This document shows, one piece after another, positions 13,143 to 60,255 of a stretch of DNA of 64,000 nucleotides; position 1 is the first letter of the stretch, and every line of letters starts with the position of its first letter. This DNA is from Patescibacteria group bacterium (lineage in GTDB: Bacteria; Patescibacteriota; JABMPQ01). Location of the stretch: contig JBGTBM010000009.1 in assembly GCA_041749335.1 (NCBI GenBank), forward strand, positions 179-64,178. The letters run 5' to 3'. Under the pieces are notes generated by a model, which saw only the letters and a list, made by a program, of their open reading frames with translations, did not search any database and was not told the origin of the DNA. The translations under genes and the position numbers were made by a program.

Positions 13143-13170
13143 TTTTGTTTTTTAGTTATTTTTAATATAT

Positions 13171-14001: not shown

Positions 14002-14022
14002 AAAAATTAATATATAAATAAA

Positions 14023-20789: not shown

Positions 20790-21675
20790 AATAAAAGTTA
20801 GTATAATTATCCCAACATATAATGAAAAAGAGAAATTAATTAATTGCATAAATTCAATATATAATCAAAGCTACCCAAATAATTTAATTGAAGTTATTGT
20901 AATTGATGATGGTAGCACGGATGGAACAAAAAATTATCTAAAATATAATTTTAAAAAAGTATTATTAATTGAAAAGCAAAATACCGGAGCCTATGATTCA
21001 AGAAATAGGGGTATAAATATTGCCACCGGAGATATTTTAGCGTTTACAGATTCTGATTGTGTCGCAGATAAAAATTGGATAAACAATATTGTCAAAAATA
21101 TTAAAGATAGCAAAAATATAATCGCGGGAGGAAAAATAGTTCACAAAAATAATTTTATTCAAAAAGTCATTGGCATTTCCGATTTTGGCGAATATCAAGA
21201 TGACAAAATTAAAAACATTAATGCAATACCAACCGCGAATCTAGCCGCAAGTAAAATTATTTTTGATAAATATCGTTTTGATCAAAGCTTAAAATCCTCT
21301 GGAGACCGCCTATTTAGCTGGAAACTTTTCAAAGATGGATTCAAACTTATATATTTCCCCGACATAATCATATTTCATGATCCATCCATCAAATTATCCA
21401 GATTTTTTGAAAGAAAATATCGTTATGGCAAATCCTTTATAGAAATAAGAAAAAACCATCCCGATTTACCAGGCTCAAAAATAGTTAAGTATCATATATT
21501 AGGCGCTTATTTAATTTCCATCCTAAGAACCATTCTGGATATATTCAGATTATTTAAAACATTGAAAAATAATAATATTAAGATATATGAAATAGTACCA
21601 GCTATCGTACTTATTGGCCTAGGGAGAATTACTTTCTTATGTGGAAATATTGTACAATTGATTAAAAATGATTAA
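20773..21675 (+). CDS. Glycosyltransferase family 2
   Basis: VSIIIPTYNEKEKL...VIVIDDGSTDGT. Confidence 0.8.
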   Translation: MSSINKIKVSIIIPTYNEKEKLINCINSIYNQSYPNNLIEVIVIDDGSTDGTKNYLKYNFKKVLLIEKQNTGAYDSRNRGINIATGDILAFTDSDCVADKNWINNIVKNIKDSKNIIAGGKIVHKNNFIQKVIGISDFGEYQDDKIKNINAIPTANLAASKIIFDKYRFDQSLKSSGDRLFSWKLFKDGFKLIYFPDIIIFHDPSIKLSRFFERKYRYGKSFIEIRKNHPDLPGSKIVKYHILGAYLISILRTILDIFRLFKTLKNNNIKIYEIVPAIVLIGLGRITFLCGNIVQLIKND

Positions 21676-26743: not shown

Positions 26744-28240
26744 TTAATTAGCATTTTTAAAGATTTTTGTTCGAATATTTTTTAAACTTTCTCTAATGTA
26801 ATATTTAATTTTTTCTATTTCTCTCGCTTCAAAAAATTTTATTAAATACAAAAGTGCAAAAAATAACAATATTAATATAATTTTAATAATAAACAACCAA
26901 ATTATATTAAACTCTGGTATGAATCTATCGACTATTAATATAAATATAATTACCAATATTATTTTTATAATCCTATTCCATTGATAATTTATTTGATAAA
27001 AATAATTACTAACAAAATAGGTTAATATTATTAACAATGAATAAGAAATAATTGTCGAAATGGCCGCTCCTAGCATAGAATATTTAGGAATTAATATAAT
27101 ATTTGAAAAAATATTAATTGCTCCGCATATAATTAATATTAAGGCGGAAATTTCAGTTCTCCTTTTTAAATTTATTCCAATATTAATCATAAAATAAATT
27201 CCATAAAATAAATACGATAAAGCAATATATGGAACTATTATAGCCGCTTGATAATATGCTTCGGTGGAAATTATTTTAATTATTTCTTCTGAAAATACCG
27301 TTATTCCGGTAAAAAGAAAACCTCCTAATAAAACATAGTATATTATAATATAAGAAAAGATATTTTTAGCTTTTTCTTCTTTCTTTAATATTGACCACAT
27401 TATTTGCGCCCAAGCTAACTGAACAGGAGCAACAAATAAAAAATTAATCATCATGCCAATGTTGTAGCCCAAGGTATAGATACCGACGATGGAAGATCCG
27501 ATCATTCGCTCCAGCAAAAATCGATCTATCATAGTCATCACCCATGATGCCAGCGCAGCGGGAACTAAAGGAATGCTAAATCTTAATATTTTTTTCAATT
27601 TTACAAATGAAAATCTAAAATCAATATTTTTAATAATTATTGGCAGGCTCATGATGAAAAATATCATAAAGGCATACATCATTCCCCTCAATGCACCTAT
27701 AACTCCTTGATCCAAATATACCATAAAATATAATATCAATCCGATCTGAATAATTAAACGTGCGATAATATACAAACTATATATTTTTGATTTTGCCTTT
27801 GATCTCAATATCGATAGTGAAATCAATGATCCGACATCAAAAAAAGATGTAATAAATATTATTCTTAAATATTGACCATAATCTGCAGTCGCAAAAAATA
27901 ATTCGGAAATATTATCAGCATAAATATATAAAACTGCTACTACGAGTAACGAAAACAAAAATAAGAATATTACGATAGTGCTCACTAGGTTTCTTCTATC
28001 TTTCTCTTTTGTATAATCGTATATGTAAAAACGAAATAATGTGGTTTGCAGGCCCAAGGATAACATTATTATTACGATATTTAGAGTAACAGTCATAAGA
28101 GATAAAACTCCGTATTCATCAGTTGATAAGACCCTGGTATATACTGGAATTAGAATAAAAGCGATAATCTTGCTAATTAAGCTACCAAAACCATATATTA
28201 TTGAATGTTTCCCTGTTTGTTTAAGATATTTCGCGATCAT
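26744..28240 (-). CDS. wzx: Wzx-type oligosaccharide flippase (MOP superfamily)
   Basis: About 14 TM helices and an N-terminus typical of polysaccharide biosynthesis proteins (SIIYGFGSLISKIIAFILIPVYTRVL). Confidence 0.7.
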   Translation of the reverse strand: MIAKYLKQTGKHSIIYGFGSLISKIIAFILIPVYTRVLSTDEYGVLSLMTVTLNIVIIMLSLGLQTTLFRFYIYDYTKEKDRRNLVSTIVIFLFLFSLLVVAVLYIYADNISELFFATADYGQYLRIIFITSFFDVGSLISLSILRSKAKSKIYSLYIIARLIIQIGLILYFMVYLDQGVIGALRGMMYAFMIFFIMSLPIIIKNIDFRFSFVKLKKILRFSIPLVPAALASWVMTMIDRFLLERMIGSSIVGIYTLGYNIGMMINFLFVAPVQLAWAQIMWSILKKEEKAKNIFSYIIIYYVLLGGFLFTGITVFSEEIIKIISTEAYYQAAIIVPYIALSYLFYGIYFMINIGINLKRRTEISALILIICGAINIFSNIILIPKYSMLGAAISTIISYSLLIILTYFVSNYFYQINYQWNRIIKIILVIIFILIVDRFIPEFNIIWLFIIKIILILLFFALLYLIKFFEAREIEKIKYYIRESLKNIRTKIFKNAN

Positions 28241-28303: not shown

Positions 28304-29947
28304 ATGTTAACCAAGATATTAAGTTTTTGGAAATATCATAACCTTTATATAATTATATTATTATCAATAATATTTTTTTTCATATATTCTTATATTTCGT
28401 TTCAATTTCCCGAATATTTTAATTCTCCAGATGAAGCCGCAAATTATTATTTTATCAATCATTTCATTGAAAATTTTAACTTTAGTTTTTACGAACCTTT
28501 AAACTCAGAATTTGCTAATTTATTACATCCCAGAAATTCAATTGTGATAGAAAACAATATAGTCCCGCTTTGTTTTCTAGGATTCCCCTTGCTCATTGGA
28601 TTTTTGGGAAAATTAATAGATGTCTCAATTATTTTATTTATCGTTCCGTTTTTTTCATCTACGGCGGCAATATTTTTTTATTTATTGCTAAGAGAAATTT
28701 TTTCGGAACGAATAGCTATTCTATCAAGTATTATTCTATTATTTCATCCTGCTTTTTGGTATTTTTCTTCACTATCAATGCATCATAATGCCCTATTCTC
28801 CTCGTTTTTTATAATTTCTTTATATTTTTTTATTAAATTATTAAAAAATCCCACTATTCTACGCTATTATATTCTGTTTTCAATCTTTATTGGCTTAACT
28901 ATAACCATAAGAGCTAATGAATTGGTATGGCTTGCCATATTGTTTTTTTCGCTTTTAGTATTCTATCGTAAAAGTATAAATATTAAATATTTATTTATAA
29001 GTTTATTGTGTTTATTGTTTATTTTAGCTCCATTTTTTTATTTTAATAATGCCACTTATTCCAGTCCATTTTCAACTGGTTATTCTCATAAAGTTGATAT
29101 TGATCTAGAGATATCGGGTGTCGAAAATAGTTCAAATGGAATATCTAAAATTTTTAAAATAATCGCTCCTTCCGGCATACGCCCAGAAAAAGTTCTGGAT
29201 TCATTTTTAGAATATTTTATTATTATTTATCCAATTTTTTCAATTTTAGTTTTTAGCGGTATCATTCTAGCAGTTAAAAATAGAGCCAAATTTAATCAAA
29301 AGCAAAAATTATATTTTAAATATTTATTAATATTATCTTCTTATTTGATAATTTATTATGGCGGCGGATATTATTTTGGTGCCAGCGGTTTGGATACTGA
29401 CTTTAATATCAGTTCTTCGCTAATAAGATACTGGCTTCCGATATTTATATTTAGCATTCCCCTGATAAGTATCATAATAATTAAAATATTGGGAAAATTT
29501 CAGCATAATTATTTAAAGATGTTCTCCTATTCATTAATAACGTTGCTATTAATGATCTTTTCATTTAATTTAGTCTATAATGATAAAAATTTTGGTTTAA
29601 TAAAAATTGCCAATAATACAATATTATATAAGCAAATATCAGATGGATTGCATAATTCCATTAATAAAGATGCAATCATTATTAGCAATAATGCTGATAA
29701 ATTTGTTTTCCCCAAATTTAGAGTAATCGGAACAAATTTAGAACTTGATAATTTTTTTCAAAATGAGAATGTAATTAAAACAATAAATGAACAAACAAAT
29801 AATTTTGAAATATATTATTTTACTATGTTTGGCCTTAATGATTTTGATAATATAAGTGCTAGATTAAGAAGCAAAGGTATTGAACTTATTCCCGATGTAA
29901 CAATAAAAGACATAAGCAGTTTGTATATAATCACAAAAGCTTTTTAG
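28304..29947 (+). CDS. Polytopic membrane protein with extracytoplasmic C-terminal domain (possible GT-C-like)
   Basis: 547 aa, at least 10 TM helices, extremely AT-rich. SPDEAANYY follows the first TM helix. Confidence 0.3.
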   Translation: MLTKILSFWKYHNLYIIILLSIIFFFIYSYISFQFPEYFNSPDEAANYYFINHFIENFNFSFYEPLNSEFANLLHPRNSIVIENNIVPLCFLGFPLLIGFLGKLIDVSIILFIVPFFSSTAAIFFYLLLREIFSERIAILSSIILLFHPAFWYFSSLSMHHNALFSSFFIISLYFFIKLLKNPTILRYYILFSIFIGLTITIRANELVWLAILFFSLLVFYRKSINIKYLFISLLCLLFILAPFFYFNNATYSSPFSTGYSHKVDIDLEISGVENSSNGISKIFKIIAPSGIRPEKVLDSFLEYFIIIYPIFSILVFSGIILAVKNRAKFNQKQKLYFKYLLILSSYLIIYYGGGYYFGASGLDTDFNISSSLIRYWLPIFIFSIPLISIIIIKILGKFQHNYLKMFSYSLITLLLMIFSFNLVYNDKNFGLIKIANNTILYKQISDGLHNSINKDAIIISNNADKFVFPKFRVIGTNLELDNFFQNENVIKTINEQTNNFEIYYFTMFGLNDFDNISARLRSKGIELIPDVTIKDISSLYIITKAF

Positions 29948-29999: not shown

Positions 30000-31523
30000 A
30001 TGAATAATAATAATAATAATAATAATAAAACTAAATTCATTAAATTTTTTATATATTTAATACCGATATTAATTTGTTTATGGTTATTAAATAAATATTT
30101 CGTTTTTACGGGAAATTTAGATTCTTCCTACGTTTTTGACAATCAACCTTCAATATTTAATGAACTACAACCCGAAACTCGCGTGCATAGCCCAGAAATA
30201 AATTTAAAAACCGGTGAAAAATATCAAAGGATTCAGAGTGAACTGGTTTATTTTTCATTAAATATACCCCGATCTTTTCAAAAAGCTAATTTTACTTTTA
30301 CTTTCGACGCTCCCTCACAGCCAATAATTAATGTCGGAATAAAAAGAGCTTATGAAGATACTAGTTATGAATTTAAAACTTTAAAAAATGACTATTTTGA
30401 TAAATTAAATAAATATTGGACCAAAACTTATGACAAAAATAATAAAATAGTCTTAATGCAAAATTTAAATAAAGAGAATGAAAATTATGATACGGTACAA
30501 GGTTTTATTAATAATCCGCCTCAAAATAAAAAGATTGGAACATATTATATCGATTTAACTGATAATAAAAAATTAGAAAATTATAAACCCTCCAATAAAA
30601 TTAACAATATTGAAACTCCCTTAAGGGGCAAACACGAAATATACACATATATTAAAGATGAAACTCTAGATTATAATTTCTCTTACTATGATTTAAATAA
30701 CGAAGAAGGCCTAGATCAATTTAATATTAATGTATATAAAGGTCTTAAACTCGTTTATTCAAATTTATCTGAAGATGATGGAAATAATAAAGCAAATAAT
30801 TTAGTTTCTGAGTTTAAACAATTCCAACTTAAAATTCCTGATTTGGCTGAAGGTAAATATTTAATAAAACTCGCTTTACCAGAAGATATTATAATAAATA
30901 AAATTACTACCAGGCAGAAATACACTGTATTTGCAAGCAGAATACGCACTGTTGGCAATCGATTAGAATTTAATAATGATTATTCTTTTTCAGAAGTTCC
31001 TGTTAAAATATTTTCGCCTAATTCAAATTTTCAATTAAGAACATTCGGCCCTGTCAGCGAACAAGAAATATTAATAGACAATCAAAGCATTACTTTATCT
31101 TCAAATAACTCATCGCTTATAAATCATTCGACGGGCAAAGAAAATAACGAATTAATAGAAATTAATGCTCCCCTTGGCAATATTTTATTATTGGCACCTA
31201 TCTTTGTTTTTAATAAAGAGCAATATTTTGATCCATATTTTAATATAAACCAAATAGCATTAAATACTGCAATATCAGATGAATTTGATTATATTATTGG
31301 TACCATTGACGATTATTTAACCCCACAAAAATATCGCAATTGGTATAAAAACGAAATATCATTTGAAACCGCTAACGCCTACACGGAAAATGGTGAATTG
31401 AAATTTGCAATTCAAATTCCCGGATTTAACAACATTGATGATGTAATTATAAAAGATATTAAAGTCAACTTGCAGACCGATAATATATTTAAAAGATTAT
31501 TTAATAAAATAAATATTTATTAA
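30000..31523 (+). CDS. Hypothetical TM-anchored extracytoplasmic protein with N-terminal poly-Asn tract
   Basis: MNNNNNNNNNKTK, then one TM helix, then a roughly 470-aa hydrophilic domain with no recognisable motifs. Confidence 0.4.
   Translation: MNNNNNNNNKTKFIKFFIYLIPILICLWLLNKYFVFTGNLDSSYVFDNQPSIFNELQPETRVHSPEINLKTGEKYQRIQSELVYFSLNIPRSFQKANFTFTFDAPSQPIINVGIKRAYEDTSYEFKTLKNDYFDKLNKYWTKTYDKNNKIVLMQNLNKENENYDTVQGFINNPPQNKKIGTYYIDLTDNKKLENYKPSNKINNIETPLRGKHEIYTYIKDETLDYNFSYYDLNNEEGLDQFNINVYKGLKLVYSNLSEDDGNNKANNLVSEFKQFQLKIPDLAEGKYLIKLALPEDIIINKITTRQKYTVFASRIRTVGNRLEFNNDYSFSEVPVKIFSPNSNFQLRTFGPVSEQEILIDNQSITLSSNNSSLINHSTGKENNELIEINAPLGNILLLAPIFVFNKEQYFDPYFNINQIALNTAISDEFDYIIGTIDDYLTPQKYRNWYKNEISFETANAYTENGELKFAIQIPGFNNIDDVIIKDIKVNLQTDNIFKRLFNKINIY
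30003..30029 (+). repeat. (AAT)9 trinucleotide microsatellite inside the start of a CDS
   Basis: aat repeated 9 times immediately after the ATG. Confidence 0.9.
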
Positions 31524-31526
31524 AAT

Positions 31527-31910
31527 ATGAAATACCTATTTAAAACATTTATTCATATTAAAAATTCAACGCTGCTTATTATAAATACAATATTTATCAC
31601 ATCTCTTTTTTCTTATCTTTTATTGTTTTTGTTTAATATATTCCTAGGGGATTTTATCACTAATTTTATAAATTTAAATTATTTATTATATCCACTTGGA
31701 ATATCTTTAATTATTTTAATTTTTAATAATAACAATACTTATATAAACCAAGAATCTAACACTTTAACCCGTTTATTTATTTCTATTATTGGAAGCTTTA
31801 TAATATTCTTTTTAGCTAAAGAGCTGGGAGTATTTAAGTGGTTATTGACTCTATCGATTTTTTTTATACTATTTTATTCTACAAAGAACTTCAATAACGA
31901 TTCGCAATAA
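31527..31910 (+). CDS. Small 4-TM membrane protein, GtrA-like candidate (lipid-linked sugar flippase)
   Basis: 127 aa with about 4 TM helices, immediately upstream of a GT-C-like gene and near a GtrB-like GT2. Confidence 0.35.
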   Translation: MKYLFKTFIHIKNSTLLIINTIFITSLFSYLLLFLFNIFLGDFITNFINLNYLLYPLGISLIILIFNNNNTYINQESNTLTRLFISIIGSFIIFFLAKELGVFKWLLTLSIFFILFYSTKNFNNDSQ

Positions 31911-31968: not shown

Positions 31969-33888
31969 ATGAATAAAGTATTTAATTTTAATAAAATTAT
32001 TTTATTAATCAAATATATTAATATTATTTTAATATCTACTACTTTTATATTTTTACTTTATATAATTTTTTATTTGTTTTTATCCTTTAATTATTTAAAT
32101 TTATTATTTACCCATTCTGACATTTTTCTTTTTTCTTTAATATTATTTGATTTATTTATTATTTTTATATTTATTAAAAATAATAAATCATTAAATATAA
32201 ATATTCTTTATTTATATATTGCATTATTTATTTTATTAGAAGTGCCCTTATTAATTAACGGCTTTAATAATTCTATCATCCTTTTTCAAGATTTAGATTA
32301 TAATCAGTGTTTTATTGTAATATTTCTCGGAATGATAATATATTTTTTTACTAACAAGGGTAAATATTTATCTAGCAAAATTTTTAATAATAATTTACTT
32401 ATTATTAATTCTAAAATTAATAATAAGTCTAAATATTCCATATTATTAATATTTTTATTATTTTTACTTATAAAACTTTTAATTCCTTATTTTTATCAAG
32501 GATCATATATTGATGAATATTTTCATATTTTACATGGTATAAATATTTTTAATAACCTTGAAACAAATTATATCCGGGGCCTGCCCATCACCTTTTTATG
32601 CGGCCTACTTATTAATTTATTTGGAAATGAACTTTTTATTTTAAAATTAATTCCGGCAGTTATCGGAATCATAAACTTTTTGTTGCTTTATAAAATATCA
32701 AAATATTTTTTTAATAATTACAAATATACTTCATTATTATTAGCAATTTACACAATTTCTCCTTGGATAATTTTTAATCATTTTTATATAAGGTTTTATG
32801 TTTTGTACGAATTATTATTATTATTATCAATTTATATTTATTTTATAGTCAATAATTCTATAGCGAAAAAAAGATTAGTTTTGTCGCTATTATCCATAAT
32901 CATTTTCATTGTATTTAATGTTTTATTGTTCTTTATAATTAATGATTCCGGCTTTTATATGATAATTATTTTTAATTGTTTTTTAATATTCTTTTTAGTT
33001 ATTAAAAGTATATTAATTTTATCAAATGCAATTATAAAAAATATTTTTAAATATTTTTTTTATATACTTATAACTTTTTTCTTTTTTTATTTATTATTTA
33101 ATAATAAATTTAATTATTTAATAAAAGTAAATCTTGCTAACACCAACTATGAAATAAATAAATATGAATATTTCTTTTTTTATAAAAATATCGGCTTTAC
33201 AATATTATTTATTTTATCAATTTTTATCGCTTTAAAACATTTAAATAAAAAAGGTGAAATCAAATCTCAAAATATTATATTTATAGCTTCCTTTTTAATT
33301 CTGATAATACATTTAATATCTTCAAGTGACTTGCAACTAATTCGAAGTATAGTATACTTTATCCCCTTGTTTTATTTAGTTGCAATTTATTCTCTTAAAC
33401 ATTTAAATATTAAATCTATCTATAAATACCCAATAATGCTATTTTTATTTTTAACTATATTCAACAACTACCCAAGTAAATTTTTTAGCGATGGGCCTTA
33501 TATACCTTCAGAAGTTTTTTACCGAAGATTTAAAGAATCTTTTGACTTTATTAAAAATAATTGTGACGATTATTTCATAATTAATTTGACAAAAAATCAT
33601 TATGTTTCTTCTTTCTATGATATTAACGAATATTATCTTATTAATTCAATTTATTATAACAATCCATTGAGTGTTAATTATGATAATAAATTTATTAATT
33701 ATGAAAAATATAAAAATAAAATAAGAAAAAATGAGAATATATGTTATTTATATTCTCATTTGTGGTCAGTTAATAATAAAAATAAAACCTATCAATCTAT
33801 CCGTAGATACCTTAAAAATAATTATGATGATAAAATATCCTTTGGTAATTTTGAAGTGTTCATTTTTTTAAATAAAAATAATAATTAA
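31969..33888 (+). CDS. GT-C family membrane glycosyltransferase-like protein (ArnT/PMT/YfhO-like)
   Basis: 639 aa with many TM helices. YIDEYFHILHGINIF is DE-motif-like in an early loop. It converges on the GtrB-like GT2. Confidence 0.4.
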   Translation: MNKVFNFNKIILLIKYINIILISTTFIFLLYIIFYLFLSFNYLNLLFTHSDIFLFSLILFDLFIIFIFIKNNKSLNINILYLYIALFILLEVPLLINGFNNSIILFQDLDYNQCFIVIFLGMIIYFFTNKGKYLSSKIFNNNLLIINSKINNKSKYSILLIFLLFLLIKLLIPYFYQGSYIDEYFHILHGINIFNNLETNYIRGLPITFLCGLLINLFGNELFILKLIPAVIGIINFLLLYKISKYFFNNYKYTSLLLAIYTISPWIIFNHFYIRFYVLYELLLLLSIYIYFIVNNSIAKKRLVLSLLSIIIFIVFNVLLFFIINDSGFYMIIIFNCFLIFFLVIKSILILSNAIIKNIFKYFFYILITFFFFYLLFNNKFNYLIKVNLANTNYEINKYEYFFFYKNIGFTILFILSIFIALKHLNKKGEIKSQNIIFIASFLILIIHLISSSDLQLIRSIVYFIPLFYLVAIYSLKHLNIKSIYKYPIMLFLFLTIFNNYPSKFFSDGPYIPSEVFYRRFKESFDFIKNNCDDYFIINLTKNHYVSSFYDINEYYLINSIYYNNPLSVNYDNKFINYEKYKNKIRKNENICYLYSHLWSVNNKNKTYQSIRRYLKNNYDDKISFGNFEVFIFLNKNNN

Positions 33889-34817
33889 TTTTCAATTACT
33901 TCCTTGACAGAGTAATTTGCTCTATTTTTATTATAATATGTCTTTATGGCAATATCAGCTAAAATTCCTGAAATAAATAGCTGTAGACCAACTAAAACTA
34001 AAAATATTGCTACTAACGGCCAGATACTATTTTGCAAAGAGATTTTTCCTAAAATTCTGGTAATGGCTAGATAAATACCAAGGATAAATCCCCCCCCGCC
34101 TATTAATATTCCAAAACTGCCAAATAAATGCAGCGGCCGGGCAGAAAATTTTCTCCAAAACCAAACCATCCACATATCAAGAAAACCTTTTACAATCCTC
34201 CTTAAATTATATTTGGTTTTGCCAAATTTTCTTTCACGATGTTCCACTTTTACTTCACCCACTTTAAAGCCTTTCCACTTCAATATTGCGGGAATAAACC
34301 GGTGCATTTCTCCATACAGATCAAGATCATCAAAACATTCTTTCCGATAGGCCTTTAACGTACAGCCTGAATCGTGAATTTTATCTTTGATTAATAATCC
34401 CCTTAGTATATCAGCTCCGCGTGAAATAATTTTTTTTATAAAAGGATCTCGTCTTTTATAGCGCCACCCTGATACCAAATCATACCCTTCATTCAATTTA
34501 CTGATTAATTTACTGATTTCCGAGGGCGGATTTTGTCCATCACCATCAAGCGTAATTATTATCTCTCCTCTAGCTCTCTTGATGCCGGCATCTAGCGCGG
34601 CCGTTTGCCCAAAATTTTTCCTAAAATTTATTATTTTTATCGAATATAATTTTTTTAATTTTTCTAGGGTATTATCAATTGATCCGTCATTAACAAATAT
34701 TACTTCAAAATCCAAAGCGATCTTTTTCATTTCGTAAATAATTTCCCGATGCAATGAAATAACATTTTCTTCCTCATTAAAAACTGGCACAATAATTGAA
34801 TATTTTGGTTTGTTCAT
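33885..34817 (-). CDS. Polyprenyl-phosphate glycosyltransferase (GT2, GtrB/CsbB/ArnC-like) with 2 C-terminal TM helices
   Basis: YSIIVPVFNEEENV...VIFVNDGSIDNT...TLDGDGQNPP plus two C-terminal TM helices. Confidence 0.8.
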   Translation of the reverse strand: MNKPKYSIIVPVFNEEENVISLHREIIYEMKKIALDFEVIFVNDGSIDNTLEKLKKLYSIKIINFRKNFGQTAALDAGIKRARGEIIITLDGDGQNPPSEISKLISKLNEGYDLVSGWRYKRRDPFIKKIISRGADILRGLLIKDKIHDSGCTLKAYRKECFDDLDLYGEMHRFIPAILKWKGFKVGEVKVEHRERKFGKTKYNLRRIVKGFLDMWMVWFWRKFSARPLHLFGSFGILIGGGGFILGIYLAITRILGKISLQNSIWPLVAIFLVLVGLQLFISGILADIAIKTYYNKNRANYSVKEVIEN

Positions 34818-34818: not shown

Positions 34819-36150
34819 TTATTTTATTAATTCACTCTTAATAATACCGATAATATATTTTATATTTAAATTTATTTTTAATTTTAATCCCAATTTTTTT
34901 CTTAAATAATATATCTCAAATATCGCAACTACCAGCTGTGCAAATACTGTTACGATTACTGCACCCAATGCTCCATAAAATGGTATAAATATTAAATCTA
35001 GTATTACATTAACTGCTGCACCAAATAATACAATGCGTGTTGTGTATTTAGCGTACTTTGTAGCTATTAAAAAAGTTCGACAGACACTAAATATTTTTAT
35101 TAATAAAAGTGGTAGTAATACTTTAAGTAATATAATTGATGCTTGATATTGAGGAAATAATTTTTCAATTAATGAATCTGATAATACAAATAAAAGTAAG
35201 GTGGTTGGAAAAACAAATATAATCGACAAGGATAATATTTTTGTAAATAATTCCTGGAGTTTTTCTTTCCTTCCATCAATAAAATAAGTAGTAATCACCG
35301 GTGCGAATACAGCACTAATAAAAGTAAATATTACTACAAATGGCATCTGAAATATTTTGTCAGCTACATTAAAATAAGCAACTTCGGCATTATCACAATA
35401 TTTTCCAATTATTATAATATCTATTCTAGTATATAAAAAATATGTCACGCTCGTTATACTAATCGGAATTGCATATTTTATAATTCTTTTTCCTGTATTA
35501 ATAATATAAATCTTTTGTTCTTTTATATATCTTAAATATTTATAATCGATTATTATAAACCCAAATATTACAGAAATTAATATTCCAAATATTGTTATTA
35601 ACAAAACATTAAGAATTTCTAATTTTTGATATTTGATCAATGCCAGCAATAATGATATTTGAATAATTCTAGATATAAAAAAAGTTAGAGTAGAATATTT
35701 CAAATTTTGGTAACCTTTAATAATACTTTCAACTATTGCACTTGAACAAGATATAATTATAAAAGCAGGTGCGATTTTTAATAAAATTGTAAGTTCCTCT
35801 CTATTAAATATTTTTGAAATATAATCTTTTAATATAAATAAAACAATTCCCAATATTAAAGAAATTATAATTGAATAAATTATACTAGTTATGATTAAAG
35901 ATCTTGTTTCTTTTTTTTCAATTTCCTTGTTTGATAAAGATTCAGCGATATATTTTGATGTAGACTCACTTAATCCGTTTACTACAAAGTACATAAAAAA
36001 GAAGGTGATTGAATAAAATAATAAATATAACCCATATTTATCAGGGTCCCAAGTATTAGATAAAATAAAAAAAACTACAAATATTGAAATATTTGATATT
36101 ATTATTTGAATAATTTTCCAGAAACTATTCCTCGCTATCTTTGATATCAT
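34819..36150 (-). CDS. wzx: Wzx-type flippase (MOP superfamily), second copy
   Basis: 443 aa with about 12 TM helices. Confidence 0.65.
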   Translation of the reverse strand: MISKIARNSFWKIIQIIISNISIFVVFFILSNTWDPDKYGLYLLFYSITFFFMYFVVNGLSESTSKYIAESLSNKEIEKKETRSLIITSIIYSIIISLILGIVLFILKDYISKIFNREELTILLKIAPAFIIISCSSAIVESIIKGYQNLKYSTLTFFISRIIQISLLLALIKYQKLEILNVLLITIFGILISVIFGFIIIDYKYLRYIKEQKIYIINTGKRIIKYAIPISITSVTYFLYTRIDIIIIGKYCDNAEVAYFNVADKIFQMPFVVIFTFISAVFAPVITTYFIDGRKEKLQELFTKILSLSIIFVFPTTLLLFVLSDSLIEKLFPQYQASIILLKVLLPLLLIKIFSVCRTFLIATKYAKYTTRIVLFGAAVNVILDLIFIPFYGALGAVIVTVFAQLVVAIFEIYYLRKKLGLKLKINLNIKYIIGIIKSELIK

Positions 36151-36153: not shown

Positions 36154-37023
36154 TTACCTCTTCCATTTAGATAAATCCTTTTTAAATAATATTTCCAACT
36201 GTTCAATATCCTTAATAAATTTTTTTATAAGGTATTTTCTAGTACAATTTTCCATATTTCTATAAACAATTTTTCTTGTCGATAAGTTAATAATCTTTTC
36301 TTTAAAACCGCTTTCTTTTATTTTTTTGATAACGTTTGATAAATTAAATAATATCATTGCTTGAGATAAATATTTCATTAATGATAATATTAATACGTTA
36401 TTAATCTCCCTTGAAGAATTTACTTTTTCATTTATTTTATTTGGAATAAACTCATCATCAACTTCTAAAAATTTATATAATTTTTTTATTTCTATTAAAG
36501 GATTTTGTTTAATATCTTCTATAAATAAAAATATAATTTGTTTTTTATCAAAATATTTTAACCATCTATTAATGTGAAAACTATATAATCCTTTATCAAT
36601 ATACTCCTCTTCTAATCTTACGACATCTTCAAAATCTCTTTTTTCTTTCTTAAAATAATTTTTATACATCAAATACTGTGAATAAGCCCTATCTATCGGA
36701 TTTCTTAAACACACAATTATTTTTATATCAGGAAATTTTATTTTTATTCTTTTTGGTGCTTCTTTATCAATCAAATATTGAGTTGAGAACTCTCCCTTTA
36801 CGCAATTATTTTTACAATGCTTAAAATGTTTTGAATACCACTTAAAAGTTTTATTGAAATTTCTATTTTTAAAATTAAAAATATATGATGATTTTTTATT
36901 AAAATATTGAACTTCTTTTGGTTCAGATAATTCAATCTCGGGATGTTGATCTAGCATTTTTGATAACCATGTCGTGCCTGCTTTTTCTGCTCCTATGCCA
37001 ATAAAGTTAATTTTTAAATCCAT
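36154..37023 (-). CDS. Sulfotransferase (PAPS-dependent family)
   Basis: 5'-PSB motif IGIGAEKAGTTWL and 3'-PB motif CLRNPIDRAYSQY. Confidence 0.75.
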   Translation of the reverse strand: MDLKINFIGIGAEKAGTTWLSKMLDQHPEIELSEPKEVQYFNKKSSYIFNFKNRNFNKTFKWYSKHFKHCKNNCVKGEFSTQYLIDKEAPKRIKIKFPDIKIIVCLRNPIDRAYSQYLMYKNYFKKEKRDFEDVVRLEEEYIDKGLYSFHINRWLKYFDKKQIIFLFIEDIKQNPLIEIKKLYKFLEVDDEFIPNKINEKVNSSREINNVLILSLMKYLSQAMILFNLSNVIKKIKESGFKEKIINLSTRKIVYRNMENCTRKYLIKKFIKDIEQLEILFKKDLSKWKR

Positions 37024-37051: not shown

Positions 37052-37756
37052 CTAACTATATAATTTTTTTCCTACAATAATAAATCTTCTAAGAAATGTT
37101 AATCTCAATTTATATATTTTTGAATTAATAGAATTGCCCTTGTAAAACAATGTTAAAACTTTAATTAATTTACTAATTATTATTCCAATTACCCCCTCAA
37201 GGAATGAATAAAAATATTTATATTCAAATGTATTAAGATTATTATTATAAAATATTTGAATAATTCGCCTAACAGTCGTTATATTATTATGAGTATAATC
37301 GCAATTAAAAAAATCATTTCTCCAATCTAAATAATCTGGACTAAGTATTATTATCATCCCTCTTTTTTTTAATACTCTTTCTGATTCTGAAATAAATGTT
37401 TCTGCCTCATTAGAATTATTTAAGTGCTCATATACATCAAAACATAAAATTATATCATACGATTCATCTATTTCATTCAATGTTGGTATTTTATAATTAC
37501 TTACCTTTCGGACACCAATATTCTTCATTAATTTATTCATATTAATATTTGGCTCAACAACATCGTAATTTTTATATCCATTTTTGAGAAATACTTTTGC
37601 CAAATCTCCCTTCCCTGGTCCAATTTCTAAAATATCACAATTCTTACTTCTTAAATATTTACAAATATATCTAAAATCTCTCTTAGTTTTTCTATTATGT
37701 AATAATTTACCAATTTTAGTAGATTTGCTTTCTGCAAAGTGGTCAAAATATGGCAT
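37052..37756 (-). CDS. Class I SAM-dependent methyltransferase
   Basis: Motif I ILEIGPGKGDL and post-I ILCFDVYEHL. Confidence 0.7.
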   Translation of the reverse strand: MPYFDHFAESKSTKIGKLLHNRKTKRDFRYICKYLRSKNCDILEIGPGKGDLAKVFLKNGYKNYDVVEPNINMNKLMKNIGVRKVSNYKIPTLNEIDESYDIILCFDVYEHLNNSNEAETFISESERVLKKRGMIIILSPDYLDWRNDFFNCDYTHNNITTVRRIIQIFYNNNLNTFEYKYFYSFLEGVIGIIISKLIKVLTLFYKGNSINSKIYKLRLTFLRRFIIVGKKLYS

Positions 37757-38813
37757 TGTATATCTTTTTAAGTTTTATTAAATAATTATTTAATGAATAT
37801 TTTATTGCAGTTTTATAACCTTCTTCAATAATGTTTTTTCTATAAATATTATTTGTAGAAATATTAATAATCTTTTTAGCCAAATCTTGTGAATTATTAA
37901 CTTCAAAAAGCAATCCATTTTTTGTATTTATTATTTCATTGAGCCCATATGTGTTACTTGCAATTACAGGTGTTCCGCAAGATAACGATTCTAATTGAGT
38001 CATCCCCAGTGCTTCCCATAAAGATGGAATCACAAAACAGTCTATTGAGTTATAGAAACTAGGCATATCATATATCATACCAATCAAGAAAACATTATTT
38101 TGTAGATTATAATTATTAATTATATTTTTAATTTTATTTCTGTCTGGACCATCACCAGCTATTAGAAATTTAAATCTTTTATCATCACATGCTATTTTTT
38201 TTGCAGCGTTTAATAAAATCTTCCAACCCTTTCTTTTATTAAGTCTTGCTGCAAAGCCTATTAAAATATCTTTTTTGCTTATATTATATTTTGTTAAACT
38301 AAATTTTTTTAAAGAAAATTTTTTAAATTTATCTGTATCAACAAAATTATATAATACCTCAATTTTATTTTTTTTAACTTTGGCATTTTTAATTAATAAT
38401 TTCTTAATATGATCAGACACTGAAATAAATTTATTAACTCTATCTTGTGCAAAATTAATAAACAAATTATATAATTTTTGATTTTTTACTATTTTCCCGT
38501 GTTCATGGAAAATTAATTTTATATCTTTATTAATAAAAGCTTTATATAAATATCCAATCAGAAATGACTTAAATAAATGGCAGTGTAATATATTAAAATC
38601 CTTTTTTTTAACTATCTTTTTTAAAATTAATAAACAACCAATATTGATTTTTCGGTAAGATTTATTATATATAATATTGCCATAATTATATTTTCTTACA
38701 GAATTTCTAAGAGAAAAACAATAATTAGATTTATCCTTCCTGATTATTCCTAATACAACAGTTTGAGCTCCTCCCAAACCTAGATGATCAATTAAGTGTA
38801 GTATTTTTTTCAT
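37743..38813 (-). CDS. Glycosyltransferase family 4
   Basis: HLIDHLGLGGAQ at the N-terminus and EALGMTQLESLSCGTPVIASNTYGLNEII. Confidence 0.8.
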   Translation of the reverse strand: MKKILHLIDHLGLGGAQTVVLGIIRKDKSNYCFSLRNSVRKYNYGNIIYNKSYRKINIGCLLILKKIVKKKDFNILHCHLFKSFLIGYLYKAFINKDIKLIFHEHGKIVKNQKLYNLFINFAQDRVNKFISVSDHIKKLLIKNAKVKKNKIEVLYNFVDTDKFKKFSLKKFSLTKYNISKKDILIGFAARLNKRKGWKILLNAAKKIACDDKRFKFLIAGDGPDRNKIKNIINNYNLQNNVFLIGMIYDMPSFYNSIDCFVIPSLWEALGMTQLESLSCGTPVIASNTYGLNEIINTKNGLLFEVNNSQDLAKKIINISTNNIYRKNIIEEGYKTAIKYSLNNYLIKLKKIYNAIF

Positions 38814-38994: not shown

Positions 38995-39420
38995 CTATTG
39001 GATTATCTGAAATATTTTATCAGCTGCATTAAAATAAGCAACTTCGGCATTATCACAATATTTACTAATTATTATTATATCAATTCTAGTATATAAAAAA
39101 AATATGTGATACTAGTGATGCTTATGAGTATGGCATATTCTAATATTTTCTTTCCCACTCCACTAATAAAAATTCTTTGCGCCTGAAGATTATTCAAATA
39201 TTAATGCCTTCATTTTTTGACAATGATTGTGCGATATATTTGGCAATTGATTCACTTAAACCATTAACAATAAAATACATAAAAAAGAAAGTGATTAAGT
39301 AAAAAGAGTAAATAAAGCCCATATTTATCCGGACTCCATGCGTTAGATAAAATATAATAAATTAGCAAATAATGCTAAATTGTATATTATTATTTGTATT
39401 ATTTTCCAAATACTGTTTTT
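38995..39420 (-). pseudogene. Degenerate remnant of a Wzx flippase gene (internally deleted paralog of 34819-36150)
   Basis: 39001-39140 aligns to 35340-35470 and 39225-39420 aligns to 35935-36130 at roughly 80-85% identity. No ORF survives. Confidence 0.75.
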
Positions 39421-40616: not shown

Positions 40617-41400
40617 TTACTTTAATTTACATACAAATATTGTCCCCGCACAACATATCCATGGAGATATTGACTTTAATATTCCTTCTAATTTATTTCC
40701 GATTCCATTTAATTCATATTTTTTATTTTTTGCTCGTAGAAATGGGAAGTCCATATAAAAACCCATACTTTTAGGTTTTTTAAAATCATCGGCTGCAATT
40801 TCAACAATTTGAAAACCATTCCTAAGTAAAATCTTTTTAAATTTATTTTTTGTAAAACGATATTCGCCAAAAACCATTTTACATCCATTGATTTTATTTA
40901 ATAAAACAAATATATTTTTTATATGATTTATAAATAATCTTCTGATAAAATTTTGAGTTGGAATTGTTATAATCAGATAACCATTTTTTCTTAAAACCCT
41001 TCTCATTTCATCCAAGGCCCCTTGGGGACCCTCCTTAAAATGTTCCACCACTCCTAATGAAATTATTACATCAAAATAATTATTTGGATATTTTATATCT
41101 AATATATTTCCTTTTTCAATTTTAATATTACTTCCAGATAATTTTATTTTTTTTATATATAGCATCATCACTTAACTCTATCCCTTGAATATCATATCCT
41201 TGACTATTTAAATAGAATACCCACCTTCCTAATCCGCATCCCGCCTCTAATATTTTATGAGTTTTTTTTAAATACTTATTAAATATATCATCTACATTTT
41301 GGTATTTACACAATGCAATTCCTTCATTTATTGATTGACCCAACCAACATTGGCCTAAAGTATCTCTATTATTTTCTTTTTGATAATGTATATAAGTCAT
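40617..41400 (-). pseudogene. SAM-dependent methyltransferase disrupted by a frameshift at an A8 (plus-strand T8) homopolymer
   Basis: ORF 41128-41400 carries motif I ILEAGCGLGRW. ORF 40617-41171 carries FDVIISLGVVEHF and LRKNGYLII. The frame switches within the T8 run at 41147-41154. Confidence 0.65.
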
Positions 41401-42439: not shown

Positions 42440-43738
42440 TTATATTTCATTAATAGTATATAAATATTTTCCGTTTTTTAAACAATTAATATTTTTTACA
42501 AATTCCCAATCTATTTTACAGCTTTGTCCCATCACTTTTTTAATTGATTTTTCGATTCTATTTCTGTTCTCTTCAAATAATGTCTTCCTTTCTAAAACAA
42601 CCTTAATAAGTATTTTATTATAATTCTTTTGAATTACTTGAAATTTTTTAATATAGCCTTGATTATAAATTACCCCTATGAAATGTATAAAATATTCCGC
42701 GGGTATAATTTTACCCTCTTTCGTCGTAAATATACTTATTTCCCTACCCTCAACTTTTTCTAAATAACTCCAATTTTCACCTCTAATACCAATATCACCT
42801 ATTTCATATCTAATAAAAGGCATTGAGTAATTATTTAAATTAGTGATATAAATCTTATTATTTTCTAATACTTCTAAATAATTATTCCAAAAACTCAATT
42901 TCAATCCTTGATTAGTATTATCATCACACGCCATATCCCCAACTTCCCTTGATCCATATCGATTAAAAACTTTTGTTTTAAAAACTTCTTCGATCTTCTG
43001 TTTTATTTCTGGATATAGCGTACCAGCGGAAGTTAAAATTCCTTTAGGACTATACATTTTAAAATTATTTCTTTGAATAAATTTAGCGAATTCAGACATT
43101 GACTGAACATATGCCTCTACCCAAACCGGCTTAAACTTATTCCAATCTTTTACAAATTTTCTCATATTCTTTTCTGACATTTTAAAACTATTTAATTCTT
43201 TTCTATTATATAAAAAGTTTTTTAAACGCGTTGAGAACATTTCCTTGTCCAGTAATAAATCCCTCTCTGATCCCCATAAGCGCAATTCTCTATACCCCAT
43301 ATCTTGCTTAGCAAAAGTCTTAAAATATATTTTGTTAGCAATATTCCAATCACTATAATTTTTATCTTAAAGAAATCTTACCGGCTCACCTGTGCTTCCA
43401 CCAGAAGTATTTTCGTAGAATCCTCTTTTTTTGTAATCTTTAGAATATAAATTACTCCCTTCGCTTCTAATTATTTCTTTTGTAAGAATGGGAATTTTAT
43501 TGAAATTTTCCAAATATACTTTATTATTTTTAACAACTCCGGCCACTGCTAAAATCTTATGATAATATAGAACATTCTCGTAGGCATGCTTTAGTATTTT
43601 TTTAAGCTTTTCCTTTTGATATTTCTCCTTTTCCGATAAAGAAAAATTATTAATTTTTTTTATTTCTTTTATGTTTCCAGAAATTTTACTGCCAGCTAGA
43701 TAAAGGAAGAAATATATTATTGGTTTACGCCAGTTCAT
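42440..43738 (-). pseudogene. CapK/PaaK-like adenylate-forming enzyme (phenylacetate-CoA ligase family) interrupted by an in-frame TAA
   Basis: The upstream ORF ends ...TSGGSTGEPVRFL* (AMP-binding motif). The same reading frame continues after the TAA at 43367-43369 (minus strand) as DKNYSDW... into ORF 42440-43300. Confidence 0.65.
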
Positions 43739-44938: not shown

Positions 44939-46081
44939 TTATGGTTGAAATTTTGAAAAGTAATTATAAATTTTACTTTCCGACCAGGCTTCATTATACA
45001 CAACAATTTCATCAATTAAACCCTGGTAATACCTTAAGGTATTACCATCAGTTCCAATTTTGATTATTCCCCCGGGTACAAAAGAAGCTATAGTCTTGCT
45101 GTTTTCCAACATTCCATTAATAATAATGCGTAGATTAGATCCATCGAAAGTAAAGGCCAGATGGGTCCAATCATTATTAATCACATCGGAAGTTGAAAGC
45201 AACCCTGATTGCATTGTAGCAACCCATTTAATAGAAACGCCATCATTCCACATCATTAATCCAGGCAAGTCATCATTCTTCCAAAAAACATATTTCTTAT
45301 CATTAACAGTAGATGGCTTAACCCATGCCATTATAGTATAACCACTGCTGATCGAATCCAAGCTCGCCGAATCCGCCACCTCAATATAACCATCAACTCC
45401 GTTAAATTGAGCCGAACAGCTATCTTGATCTTCACCCGGAACAAAATCCCCGGCATTGCAAGCCAAACTCGCTCCGCCGTATGCCACGCCATTATTGCCA
45501 TTTCCGGAAAGATCGGCCACGTACGTAGGCCAGGTGGTCCAGGCATCGCCGAACTGAAACAGCAGCTTTAGGCTGCCGCAATCCTCGTCAATCTGCCCGT
45601 CGCAGTTATTATCCAAGCCGTCACACACCTCATGACCGCCCATTGAAACACTGCACTGGTATTCACAGCCATCGGCCGGATCATCGTTTTGATCCCACCA
45701 AGTATGCGAAGTTCCTGATACCAAACATTCTGCGACCTGACATTGCCCCAAGATACATTCCGCAGTTGCATTCGGCAGATTGCAGACATTGCCGCAATAA
45801 CCGCAGTTATTGGGATTATTCTGCAAATCAAAGACCTCATCAATCTGGCCGTTGCAGTTATTGTCCGCCCCATCGCAGATTTCCACACCGCCGTTGGTCG
45901 GTACGCACGCGTCATTGTTATTATTGACGTTGGTATCCGGCTGAACTTCTGCGTCCGTCATCCCCGAATCATTATTATGATTCGGCGGCAAAAGTCCGGT
46001 AGCATCAAAAACACATCCCGACAGCGTAATCGCCATTGCAAGCAGATATACGAGATTCAATTCAAATCTTTTCAAAACCAT
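44939..46081 (-). CDS. Secreted lipoprotein with MopE-like Cys-rich metal-binding repeats and a C-terminal LamG/concanavalin-like domain
   Basis: Lipobox LSGC. Repeats CDGADNNCNGQIDE and CDGLDNNCDGQIDEDC. LamG-like C-terminus. GC content is visibly higher than the surrounding DNA, producing many spurious overlapping ORFs in the track. Confidence 0.6.
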   Translation of the reverse strand: MVLKRFELNLVYLLAMAITLSGCVFDATGLLPPNHNNDSGMTDAEVQPDTNVNNNNDACVPTNGGVEICDGADNNCNGQIDEVFDLQNNPNNCGYCGNVCNLPNATAECILGQCQVAECLVSGTSHTWWDQNDDPADGCEYQCSVSMGGHEVCDGLDNNCDGQIDEDCGSLKLLFQFGDAWTTWPTYVADLSGNGNNGVAYGGASLACNAGDFVPGEDQDSCSAQFNGVDGYIEVADSASLDSISSGYTIMAWVKPSTVNDKKYVFWKNDDLPGLMMWNDGVSIKWVATMQSGLLSTSDVINNDWTHLAFTFDGSNLRIIINGMLENSKTIASFVPGGIIKIGTDGNTLRYYQGLIDEIVVYNEAWSESKIYNYFSKFQP

Positions 46082-60238: not shown

Positions 60239-60255
60239 TAATATTATATTTCATT

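Follow-up and report, generated by a model that had tools for sequence, protein, structure and literature searches.

A predicted PAPS-type sulfotransferase encoded within a glycan-assembly operon of a CPR bacterium

Sulfated glycans are made in bacteria by more than one type of system. Synechan is produced from the Wzx/Wzy-type xss cluster of Synechocystis PCC 6803, which has two sulfotransferases (STs), and the accepted view is that its repeat unit is modified while still bound to the lipid carrier on the cytoplasmic side of the membrane, ahead of flipping (PMC8205485). The cluster for the sulfated capsular polysaccharide of Cobetia marina KMM 1449 combines ST genes with genes for rhamnose and mannose nucleotide sugars and with cysNC-cysD-cysQ, and its product contains Rha-2-sulfate (PMC11766843). 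Rhizobial NodH/KpsS and mycobacterial Stf0 likewise use PAPS to sulfate surface or signal molecules that contain sugars.

The ST considered here is encoded in a 64-kb stretch of DNA from a CPR bacterium, the whole of which was analysed and is referred to below as the window. Its setting resembles that of synechan, where XssA and XssE, with the same PF00685/PF13469 domains, are encoded among glycosyltransferases (GTs) and a Wzx flippase (PMC8205485). On the other hand, the ST island yielded no identifiable Wzy, PCP, priming GT or XssQRS regulator, and synechan comes from a cyanobacterium, whereas the ST host is an uncultured CPR bacterium. The Cobetia system depends on an ABC transporter (kps), whereas the ST system is of the Wzx type. 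The PAPS/PAP-phosphatase module of the Cobetia type (cysNC/cysD/cysQ and a permease) is absent from the window but has counterparts at related loci (L003, L041, L051 and L086), and the CPR loci L003 and L051 follow the same logic of placing such genes (cysNC/cysD or sat-cysC, with a cysQ-like one) inside the cluster. Stf0, with its three-stranded core, and NodH, with its RxG PSB motif, belong to other subfamilies, and neither NodH/KpsS nor Stf0 appears among the sequence and fold matches of the ST; they do share with the ST family a variation between Lys and Arg at the PSB position.

The ST open reading frame runs from ATG to stop and encodes 289 amino acids, as seen both in the ORF list and by direct reading of the sequence (Table 1). 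Pfam recognises the protein both as PF00685, Sulfotransfer_1 (83.7 bits, cut-off 22, E 1.8e-23), and as PF13469, Sulfotransfer_3 (60.5 bits, cut-off 27); NCBIfam provided no model for it. A hydropathy scan revealed no signal peptide or transmembrane segment, the maximum over a 19-residue window being 1.61, reached only at residues 210–228.

Table 1. Features of the ST locus in order of transcription, with positions in the window.
Feature	Position	Strand	Basis and remarks
Decayed Wzx pseudogene	39005..39417	(-)	DNA and protein-piece comparison with intact Wzx; directly upstream of intact block
GT4 glycosyltransferase	37743..38813	(-)	Pfam Glycos_transf_1 (147 bits), Glyco_transf_4; first gene of intact block; overlaps MT start by 14 nt
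SAM-dependent methyltransferase (MT), 234 aa	37052..37756	(-)	Pfam Methyltransf_23/11/12/25; 28 nt upstream of ST
ST gene	36154..37023	(-)	ORF, Pfam, PDB sequence matches, AlphaFold, Foldseek; predicted cytoplasmic, without signal peptide or N-terminal transmembrane segment
5'-PSB loop, G11-A-E-K14-A-G-T-T-W19	36967..36993	(-)	Strand-loop-helix in model; family alignment
K36-E37-V-Q-Y-F-N42 motif (E37, putative catalytic base)	36898..36918	(-)	Family and 3-OST/NDST1 alignment
3'-PB motif, R107-N-P-I-D111-R-A-Y-S115	36679..36705	(-)	Exact RxxxDxxxS; codons read directly
Wzx/MOP-family flippase, 443 aa	34819..36150	(-)	Pfam Polysacc_synt (111 bits), MatE, MurJ
GT2, polyprenyl-phosphate sugar synthase-like (ArnC/PgfS/GtrB/AglJ-like)	33885..34817	(-)	Pfam Glycos_transf_2 (108 bits); 1 nt after Wzx

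Three motifs define the predicted active site. The PSB motif has been defined, and RxxxDxxxS given as the PB consensus of PF00685, in earlier work (PMC11625862). In the AlphaFold model the PSB loop is preceded by a strand (residues 7–11) and followed by a helix (residues 17–25), and its aligned counterparts in 3-OST-5 and NDST1 are GVRKGGT and GPQKTGTT. Among 37 homologues, G11 and W19 are invariant and position 14 is either Lys or Arg; R107, P109 and S115 of the PB motif are likewise invariant, as are K36, E37, F41 and W287, and D283 is nearly so. In the alignments KEVQYFN falls on QEIHFFD (3-OST-5) and EEIQFFN (NDST1), loops of the form E-x-H/Q-F-F-D/N in which the Glu corresponds to the catalytic base of the 3-OSTs (Glu90 in 3-OST-1, Glu184 in 3-OST-3; PMC8341778). 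E78 was also considered as the equivalent of this base, but it aligns with the Glu that precedes K215/K123 of the 3-OSTs, and the counterpart is E37 instead.

The whole-protein Pfam scores and the matches to solved STs indicate that the PSB and PB motifs did not arise by chance. Sequence and predicted fold together confirm the gene as an intact, genuine PAPS-type ST. The initial annotation had made this call from GAEKAGTTW and RNPIDRAYS, which were found at residues 11–19 and 107–115, and the Pfam score, PSB Lys, RxxxDxxxS motif, catalytic-Glu equivalent and fold all agree with it. It had named a lack of PAPS genes together with a degenerate catalytic Lys or Ser as what would count against the call; since K14, R107 and S115 are all intact, that combination does not occur here.

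In the AlphaFold model (pLDDT 95.5, pTM 0.92) a parallel sheet lies at the centre of an alpha/beta fold, and the structure can be superimposed on those of solved STs. Foldseek returned 91 PDB matches at E ≤ 1e-3, and all 50 among the matches listed are STs. The top match is 3RNL from Alicyclobacillus acidocaldarius (TM 0.72/0.83), followed by the PAP- or PAPS-bound heparan sulfate 3-OST-1, -3 and -5 and by NDST1, with a probability of 1.0 throughout; cytosolic SULTs, TPSTs and the CurM ST rank behind all of these. A comparison with carbohydrate STs had been proposed at the outset, and the 3-OSTs and NDST1 provide the match, if after 3RNL. The PDB sequence search gave the same picture, with an E of 4.6e-24 for 3RNL and about 1e-13 for 3-OST-5/1/3 and NDST1.

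Among solved structures, 3RNL is the nearest to the protein along its whole length. The phmmer E value quoted above improves to 5.6e-55 with the family profile, which covers 3RNL at positions 7–290, including a C-terminal helical region that ends in ...DLSxW. The two proteins share the PSB, KE..F and PB motifs and the ...RDLSxW tail, although 3RNL is of Firmicute origin and only about 24% identical in the structural alignment. From these sequence comparisons the ST is assigned to a very large, 3RNL-like bacterial and archaeal branch of the Sulfotransfer_1/3 superfamily. We take 3RNL to be a structural-genomics entry without an assigned or published substrate, and it therefore provides no functional information.

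The 3-OSTs and the N-sulfotransferase domain of NDST1 share the fold of the ST (E about 1e-10), as well as the PSB Lys and the PB Arg and Ser, and their catalytic Glu (E90/E184) aligns with E37. The SKGRKYPEMD region of NDST1 aligns with a C-terminal YPxM...L...F segment of the ST. These enzymes use carbohydrate acceptors and PAPS as donor, and the same is proposed for the ST. However, identity is only 20–27%, and the 3-OSTs and NDST1 are type II membrane proteins of the Golgi lumen, whereas the ST is predicted to be soluble, cytoplasmic and bacterial. Residues by which the 3-OSTs bind heparan sulfate or support catalysis are not kept (H186 is replaced by Q39, D189 by N42 and K215 by F79, in 3-OST-3 numbering), and heparan sulfate cannot be the acceptor. 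The ST is thus predicted to work like the 3-OST/NDST enzymes, yet it lies outside their subgroup.

The gene is the third of an array, GT4-MT-ST-Wzx-GT2, with successive spacings of -14, 28, 3 and 1 nt, all on the same strand. The five genes are probably co-transcribed and translationally coupled. Wzx starts 3 nt past the ST stop codon, and the SD-like sequence GGAAGAGG ahead of it lies within the 3' end of the ST gene. Promoter and terminator scans performed no better than shuffled sequences, and no tRNA genes or Rfam matches were found in the window. The MT and the flippase that had been placed beside the ST from the start are borne out by Pfam, as is the surrounding glycan island, about 25 kb of GT2, GT4, flippase and pyruvyl-transferase genes. 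NCBIfam models of the Wzx type match the flippase below their cut-offs, and those matching the GT2 (ArnC 169 bits, PgfS 150, AglJ 78) all stay under their equivalog cut-offs. No priming phosphoglycosyltransferase (Bac_transf or WecA-type) was found, and no clear Wzy gene within the island, the sole Wzy_C match (15023–16600) lying outside the low-GC region. Proteins of 639, 550 and 507 aa adjoin the operon; nothing usable was found for them in Pfam at E ≤ 1, apart from a non-significant best match to Wzz (E 0.025) for the 550-aa and 639-aa membrane proteins, and GT-C or Wzy roles for the three are therefore guesses.

The same context recurs elsewhere. A scan of GTDB based on an alignment of 11 closer sequences (the residue conservation given above comes from the alignment of 37) confirmed 182 related stretches, from which 80 loci were kept, and GT4, GT2 and Wzx genes adjoin the ST in nearly all of them. 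Adjacent ST and Wzx genes are found in the CPR loci L084 and L088 and in Bacteroidota loci, and L084 also has the order MT-ST-Wzx, with an MT 33% identical to the one described here.

We consider it likely, at roughly 60%, that the protein is a soluble, cytoplasmic, PAPS-dependent carbohydrate ST acting in the glycan operon. What the analysis establishes is the family, the intact motifs, the predicted fold, the arrangement of the operon and the recurring company of Wzx and GT genes, while a glycan acceptor, sulfation ahead of flipping, use of PAPS and activity in this bacterium are inferred. It would most likely sulfate a lipid-linked sugar in the cytoplasm before Wzx flips the glycan. In such a pathway, the GTs, working on the inner side of the membrane, would assemble a polyprenyl-linked oligosaccharide. 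The ST would bind its donor, PAPS, at two places, the P-loop with K14 and the 3'-phosphate site formed by R107 and S115. E37 would then deprotonate a sugar hydroxyl (or amine) for an in-line attack on the sulfuryl group, with release of PAP. The neighbouring MT would presumably add a methyl group to the glycan, and the cognate Wzx would flip the unit, now bearing sulfate and methyl groups, to the outside, where it would be polymerised or passed on to an acceptor at the surface.

Where would the PAPS come from? The window, part of a contig of 135,588 bp, extends 36 kb to one side of the ST and 27 kb to the other (-36/+27 kb), and it holds no ATP sulfurylase, APS kinase, CysDN, CysQ-like protein or sulfate transporter. 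A first screen was run with unverified probes for CysC and CysD of E. coli and for Sat of B. subtilis, and every match was therefore checked against Pfam; when the window was re-screened by tblastn with Pfam-verified CPR probes, only chance matches were obtained (E > 0.1). Several relatives are better provided. In L003, the CPR locus with the sister sequence of the ST, a fused ATP-sulfurylase/APS-kinase and a CysQ-like phosphatase (a fusion of PfkB and inositol-monophosphatase families) are encoded 3–5 kb from the ST. Sat and CysC lie near the ST of L041, CysD and CysN-CysC accompany five tandem STs in L051, PAPS-synthesis genes adjoin the ST of L042, and the archaeal locus L086 has an APS kinase and an IMPase-family gene by its ST; the loci with such genes beside their STs include two from Saccharibacteria and also archaeal ones. 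Overall, a PAPS synthase and a CysQ-like phosphatase occur beside the ST in 4 of the 19 loci from CPR/DPANN and in 1 of the 61 from elsewhere (Fisher p=0.01). Judging by these genes, a PAPS supply exists in the CPR lineage, encoded right beside the ST in some relatives, and its position beside STs in reduced genomes suggests that PAPS is made there to supply sulfation and not to assimilate sulfur.

It could be argued that the ST is intact yet silent, the GT4-MT-ST-Wzx cassette having recombined between CPR islands into a genome without PAPS synthesis, so that no sulfation occurs and the gene is perhaps decaying. The missing PAPS genes, so close by in L003, fit this course of events, as does the state of the island, which is low in GC and compositionally foreign (21.8% for the ST, with a GC3 of 17.6%, against 36–42% for housekeeping genes). 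The Wzx pseudogene directly upstream is a sign of cassette replacement: it matches the intact Wzx gene in two parts at 77–84% DNA identity, with protein pieces in three frames and an internal deletion of about 430 nt. The upstream island also contains an MT with a frameshift and a CapK-like gene that is interrupted, although the lesions (39005–39417, 41128–41171 and 43300–43367) may be either real or errors of assembly. The glycan pathway may therefore have lost its function. Nevertheless, we regard a silent ST as unlikely: all five block genes are full-length, with complete Pfam coverage, and every catalytic and PAPS-binding residue is intact. Moreover, most CPR relatives (L084, L088 and others) are without PAPS genes within 10 kb, so that absence nearby is the common state and not a sign of loss, and about 93% of a typical CPR genome of about 1 Mb lies outside the window searched.

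Alternatively, the ST could be active on PAPS (or APS) scavenged from a host cell, or on another donor. CPR bacteria, to which the source organism belongs, are generally held to depend on hosts for many metabolites; the lack of PAPS genes over the distance searched would also be accounted for. However, we know of no bacterial PAPS importer. The PAPS synthases encoded by CPR relatives suggest that the lineage solves its donor need by synthesis, and the canonical PAPS-binding motifs give no hint of a different donor, making this arrangement very unlikely. If true, decorating the surface with sulfate drawn from a host donor would be metabolic dependency of a new kind. In a broader proposal, which we rate as quite unlikely, CPR and DPANN organisms would share a laterally exchanged "sulfoglycan" cassette, consisting of one or more STs and a cognate Wzx, often with an O-methyltransferase and a GT-C/PMT_2 protein, and in some genomes with a PAPS synthase and CysQ-like phosphatase. 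PAPS synthesis would then be kept solely for decorating the surface with sulfate, and the ST genome might lack the PAPS module and draw its donor from the host. Least likely of all is a non-glycan acceptor (a small molecule, a lipid or a peptide Tyr) or sulfation as a transient leaving-group activation, as by the CurM ST domain and retinol dehydratase. In its favour, acceptors of many classes are served by the fold, the fold matches include TPSTs, SULT7A1 and the CurM ST, and no member of the 3RNL-like branch has a known substrate. However, those matches are at least five orders of magnitude weaker than the carbohydrate STs, the context both here and in nearly all 80 loci is purely one of glycan assembly and export, and no PKS/NRPS or peptide-maturation genes occur near the ST.

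If the ST is active as a carbohydrate sulfotransferase, an ultra-small episymbiont would coat itself with a sulfated, methylated glycan, and such a strongly anionic surface could affect attachment to host cells, phage resistance or cation binding. The literature searched contains no report of sulfated glycans in CPR, the present case being predicted from genes, and no paper in that search links STs with CPR or DPANN organisms. The rarity implied by the initial annotation, however, was overstated at the gene level. The ST family comprises 18,121 cluster representatives (50% identity) at E ≤ 1e-30, and the 80 loci span Bacteroidota, many CPR lineages, Proteobacteria, Planctomycetota and archaea. 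The ST is one more case of a very large, already recognised enzyme family; since annotation pipelines already name it, it will be no surprise to the specialist. As a find it is solid though rather ordinary, and the comparison of PAPS modules across loci may prove more useful than the ST gene itself. A 100% match to the locus was absent from the scan of GTDB species representatives; the GT4-MT-ST block recurs, identical over 3.2 kb, in an independent short-read assembly (Logan SRR28170473).

The sulfotransferase gene (ST) runs from ATG to TAA on the minus strand, encodes 289 aa and lies exactly where the initial annotation had placed it, with the motifs reported there, GAEKAGTTW and RNPIDRAYS, at residues 11-19 and 107-115. 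With Pfam Sulfotransfer_1 the protein reaches 83.7 bits, where the cut-off is 22, and with Sulfotransfer_3 60.5 bits; it matches the solved sulfotransferase of Alicyclobacillus acidocaldarius (3RNL) over the full length (E 4.6e-24) and the heparan sulfate enzymes 3-OST-5/1/3 and NDST1 at E about 1e-13. On these sequence comparisons, the two motifs are not due to chance. Among 37 aligned homologues (33-50% identity), G11, W19, K36, E37, F41, E78, R107, P109, S115, Y147 and W287 are invariant, and position 14 is either Lys, as in the query, or Arg. According to a 2024 review (PMC11625862), the hallmarks of polysaccharide sulfotransferases are a Lys or Arg in the 5'-phosphosulfate-binding loop, the Ser-containing 3'-phosphate-binding motif RxxxDxxxS, and a base that is either His or Glu; ST carries K14 and an exact R107xxxD111xxxS115. 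In residue-level alignments, its invariant motif K36-E37-V-Q-Y-F-N42 pairs with QEIHFFD in 3-OST-5 and EEIQFFN in NDST1; the 3-OSTs use the Glu of this motif as their catalytic base (Glu90 in 3-OST-1, Glu184 in 3-OST-3; PMC8341778). Where the 3-OSTs have the supporting residues His186, Asp189 and Lys215, however, ST differs, with Q39, N42 and F79, and it would therefore share the chemistry of the heparan sulfate enzymes without their substrate cleft. The alignment served to build a very confident AlphaFold model (pLDDT 95.5, pTM 0.92), for which Foldseek ranked 3RNL top in the PDB (E 3.8e-15, TM 0.72/0.83), ahead of 3-OST-3/1/5 and NDST1 structures with bound PAP or PAPS (E about 1e-10, probability 1.0). 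The identification as a PAPS-type sulfotransferase was thus right by Pfam scores, motifs, matches to solved sulfotransferases and fold, including the proposed fold comparison with carbohydrate sulfotransferases.

How unusual is such a gene? The rarity implied by the initial annotation was overstated at the gene level: a family profile search of 1.84 billion cluster representatives returned 18,121 with E<=1e-30, a number that rises to 44,763 with E<=1e-10. Among GTDB species representatives, 182 related stretches were confirmed by a scan, and the 80 loci kept come from Bacteroidota, at least eight CPR (Patescibacteria) lineages, Proteobacteria, Planctomycetota, Desulfobacterota and several archaeal phyla. 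No identical protein occurs elsewhere in a collection of 5.8 billion proteins, the nearest relatives being 48-50% identical, and NCBI names the CPR relatives 'sulfotransferase domain-containing protein'. Judged by sequence, ST joins a very large family that has already been annotated, as a new and fairly divergent member. In a neighbour-joining tree it pairs with the CPR locus L003 and then with L084 (also CPR), in a clade mixing CPR, archaea and Desulfobacterota. Full-text literature searches directed at a link of sulfotransferases with CPR, Patescibacteria, Saccharibacteria or DPANN found no such paper, and sulfated CPR glycans, putative here, appear to be undiscussed.

The window's housekeeping genes (class I aaRS, CTP synthase, L9, AspRS, SecDF, SecA, MetK) have many glycan genes around them. 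The best named relatives of the AspRS, at 60-70% identity, are from Patescibacteria, Ca. Buchananbacteria and Parcubacteria (another relative reaches 79%), which makes the host a CPR bacterium and is consistent with the reduced genome assumed at the outset. The methyltransferase (MT) and flippase (Wzx) beside ST had been called correctly. The series to which they belong has gaps of -14, 28, 3 and 1 nt, an SD-like GGAAGAGG lies within the 3' end of ST just before the Wzx start, and the GT4-MT-ST stretch is identical in an independent short-read assembly (Logan SRR28170473).

Features of the window around the sulfotransferase gene
Feature	Positions	Strand	Remark
GT4	37743-38813	-	first of head-to-tail series GT4-MT-ST-Wzx-GT2
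SAM methyltransferase (MT)	37052-37756	-	second of series
Sulfotransferase (ST)	36154-37023	-	between MT and Wzx
Wzx/MOP flippase	34819-36150	-	fourth of series, after ST
GT2, ArnC/PgfS/AglJ-like	33885-34817	-	last of series
Decayed Wzx	39005-39417	-	pseudogene
Split SAM methyltransferase	40617-41400	-	two ORFs
CapK-like gene	42440-43738	-	interrupted, two ORFs
Second intact Wzx	26744-28240		
PMT_2 protein	28304-29947		
Membrane or secreted protein	21668-23320	+	no significant Pfam match
Membrane or secreted protein	30000-31523	+	no significant Pfam match
Membrane or secreted protein	31527-31910	+	no significant Pfam match
639-aa polytopic protein	31969-33888	+	no significant Pfam match
838-aa fusion	24227-26743	-	redox domains and pyruvyl transferase
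LamG/MopE-repeat protein	44939-46081		at island's edge
Two adjoining secreted-looking proteins	58012-61989	-	FG-GAP repeats

Our preferred reading, with a probability of roughly 0.6, is a pathway in which the adjacent glycosyltransferases would assemble a polyprenyl-linked oligosaccharide, ST would sulfate a sugar on it in the cytoplasm (PAPS-dependent O- or N-sulfation), MT would contribute a methyl group, and the cognate Wzx would export the unit, which would then be polymerised or passed to a surface acceptor. Sequence and hydropathy inspection found no signal peptide or N-terminal TM helix in ST (hydrophobicity in 19-residue windows peaks at 1.61, in a C-terminal helix), and the protein is therefore expected in the cytoplasm, the site of PAPS synthesis. 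The same logic, modification of a lipid-linked unit before Wzx export, is accepted for the synechan xss cluster (PMC8205485), and the proposed pathway is similar to that of Cobetia marina, whose sulfated capsule cluster includes cysNC-cysD-cysQ and yields a product carrying Rha-2-sulfate (PMC11766843). An association of ST, Wzx and PMT_2 recurs in relatives: L084 (GCA_034659915.1) has MT (234 aa), ST and Wzx in the query's order, followed by a PMT_2/GT-C gene, and in L088, another CPR genome, ST adjoins Wzx. A GT-C enzyme may therefore complete the pathway; the window, too, encodes a PMT_2 protein, as well as the unclassified 639-aa polytopic protein. Archaeal Agl N-glycosylation has as components AglJ, the methyltransferase AglP, the Wzx-like AglR and AglB, and we infer, by analogy only, that the window's gene set would parallel it.

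Where would the PAPS come from? A Pfam search of every ORF from 100 aa upwards found no ATP sulfurylase, APS kinase, CysD/N or CysQ-like gene in the 64-kb window, and tblastn with Pfam-verified CPR PAPS-gene proteins gave chance matches only. An orphaned or silent ST gene, in a cassette that arrived with no PAPS supply, would fit this result and is an unlikely reading; most CPR loci, L084 and L088 included, have no PAPS gene within 10 kb, so that absence near ST is what is usually seen and reveals little about the whole genome. An active ST using a donor scavenged from a host, which would also fit, is decidedly improbable; whether PAPS synthesis is encoded was answered positively, on predicted genes, for the closest relative, L003. 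There, PAPS genes lie 3-5 kb upstream of ST and precede a GT4-MT-GT4-ST-GT4 block: a 505-aa PfkB-kinase/inositol-monophosphatase-family fusion, a candidate PAP phosphatase, is directly followed by a 561-aa PUA-ATP-sulfurylase-APS-kinase fusion (3428-6627, plus strand). In this reduced genome, the pair has the look of a compact module for making and recycling PAPS. In Saccharibacteria, Sat and CysC adjoin ST in L041, and CysD and a CysN-CysC fusion precede five ST paralogues in a row in L051 (3737-14428, plus strand), a hint that the product may be sulfated heavily or variably. Sat and CysC are fused in L042, an IMPase-family gene adjoins ST in L058 (Parcubacteria), and the Aenigmarchaeota contig L080 ends in an APS-kinase fragment. 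The archaeal contig L086 (with L31e, S19e and Cbf5 genes) has an ST 46% identical to the query's; its 9138-17056 stretch holds two tandem STs, Wzx, two PMT_2 genes, a 304-aa APS kinase and an IMPase-family gene, with no ATP sulfurylase found within the 21 kb seen. Sat, CysC or CysDN is adjacent in 4/19 CPR/DPANN loci versus 1/61 others (Fisher p=0.010; none of about 30 Bacteroidota loci), and we infer that PAPS synthesis in reduced genomes is kept, at least partly, to supply these STs. As for the acceptor, a non-glycan one, or leaving-group chemistry like that of the CurM ST domain, is very improbable; that domain is among the Foldseek matches, along with SULT7A1 and TPSTs, weaker by at least five orders of magnitude, and ST stands among GT4/GT2/Wzx genes in nearly all 80 loci, often as 2-5 tandem paralogues.

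Directly upstream of the intact block, within an apparent 605-bp gap, lies the decayed Wzx, two segments of which have 77% and 84% DNA identity to the block's Wzx; its pieces are in three reading frames, with frameshifts and about 430 nt missing internally. This suggests that recombination put the GT4-MT-ST-Wzx block in the place of an older flippase. Further upstream, a frameshift splits a methyltransferase into a 90-aa N-terminal ORF, which has the GCGLG SAM motif, and a C-terminal ORF of 184 aa; the two overlap by 44 nt. The split could reflect a real pseudogene, A-run phase variation or an assembly error. The 123-aa and 286-aa ORFs of the interrupted gene, without Pfam hits, jointly match one CapK-like gene in L084 and L086 (precomputed PF27533 CapK_C).

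These genes belong to a low-GC island at about 20.5-44.9 kb (GC 18-27% versus 35-39% in the flanks); ST has 21.8% GC and 17.6% GC3, and the housekeeping genes 36-42% GC. The island consists almost wholly of glycan-assembly genes, and since it has two intact Wzx genes besides the decayed one, it may be a stack of several glycan pathways or of serotype-like variable cassettes. The four membrane or secreted proteins without Pfam matches are candidates for putative Wzy/GT-C-type functions; one starts with eight Asn after Met, and the 639-aa protein, whose very AT-rich gene (GC about 18%) runs convergently towards the ST operon, gave no Pfam match at a threshold as loose as E<=1. The 838-aa fusion joins 4Fe-4S ferredoxin, FrhB/FdhB (F420-hydrogenase beta-like) and polysaccharide pyruvyl transferase domains, an unusual architecture in a CPR glycan island. 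A LamG/MopE-repeat protein lies at the island's edge, and the two secreted-looking proteins beyond it combine FG-GAP repeats with enzymes of the cell wall, a YkuD L,D-transpeptidase and an M14 carboxypeptidase.
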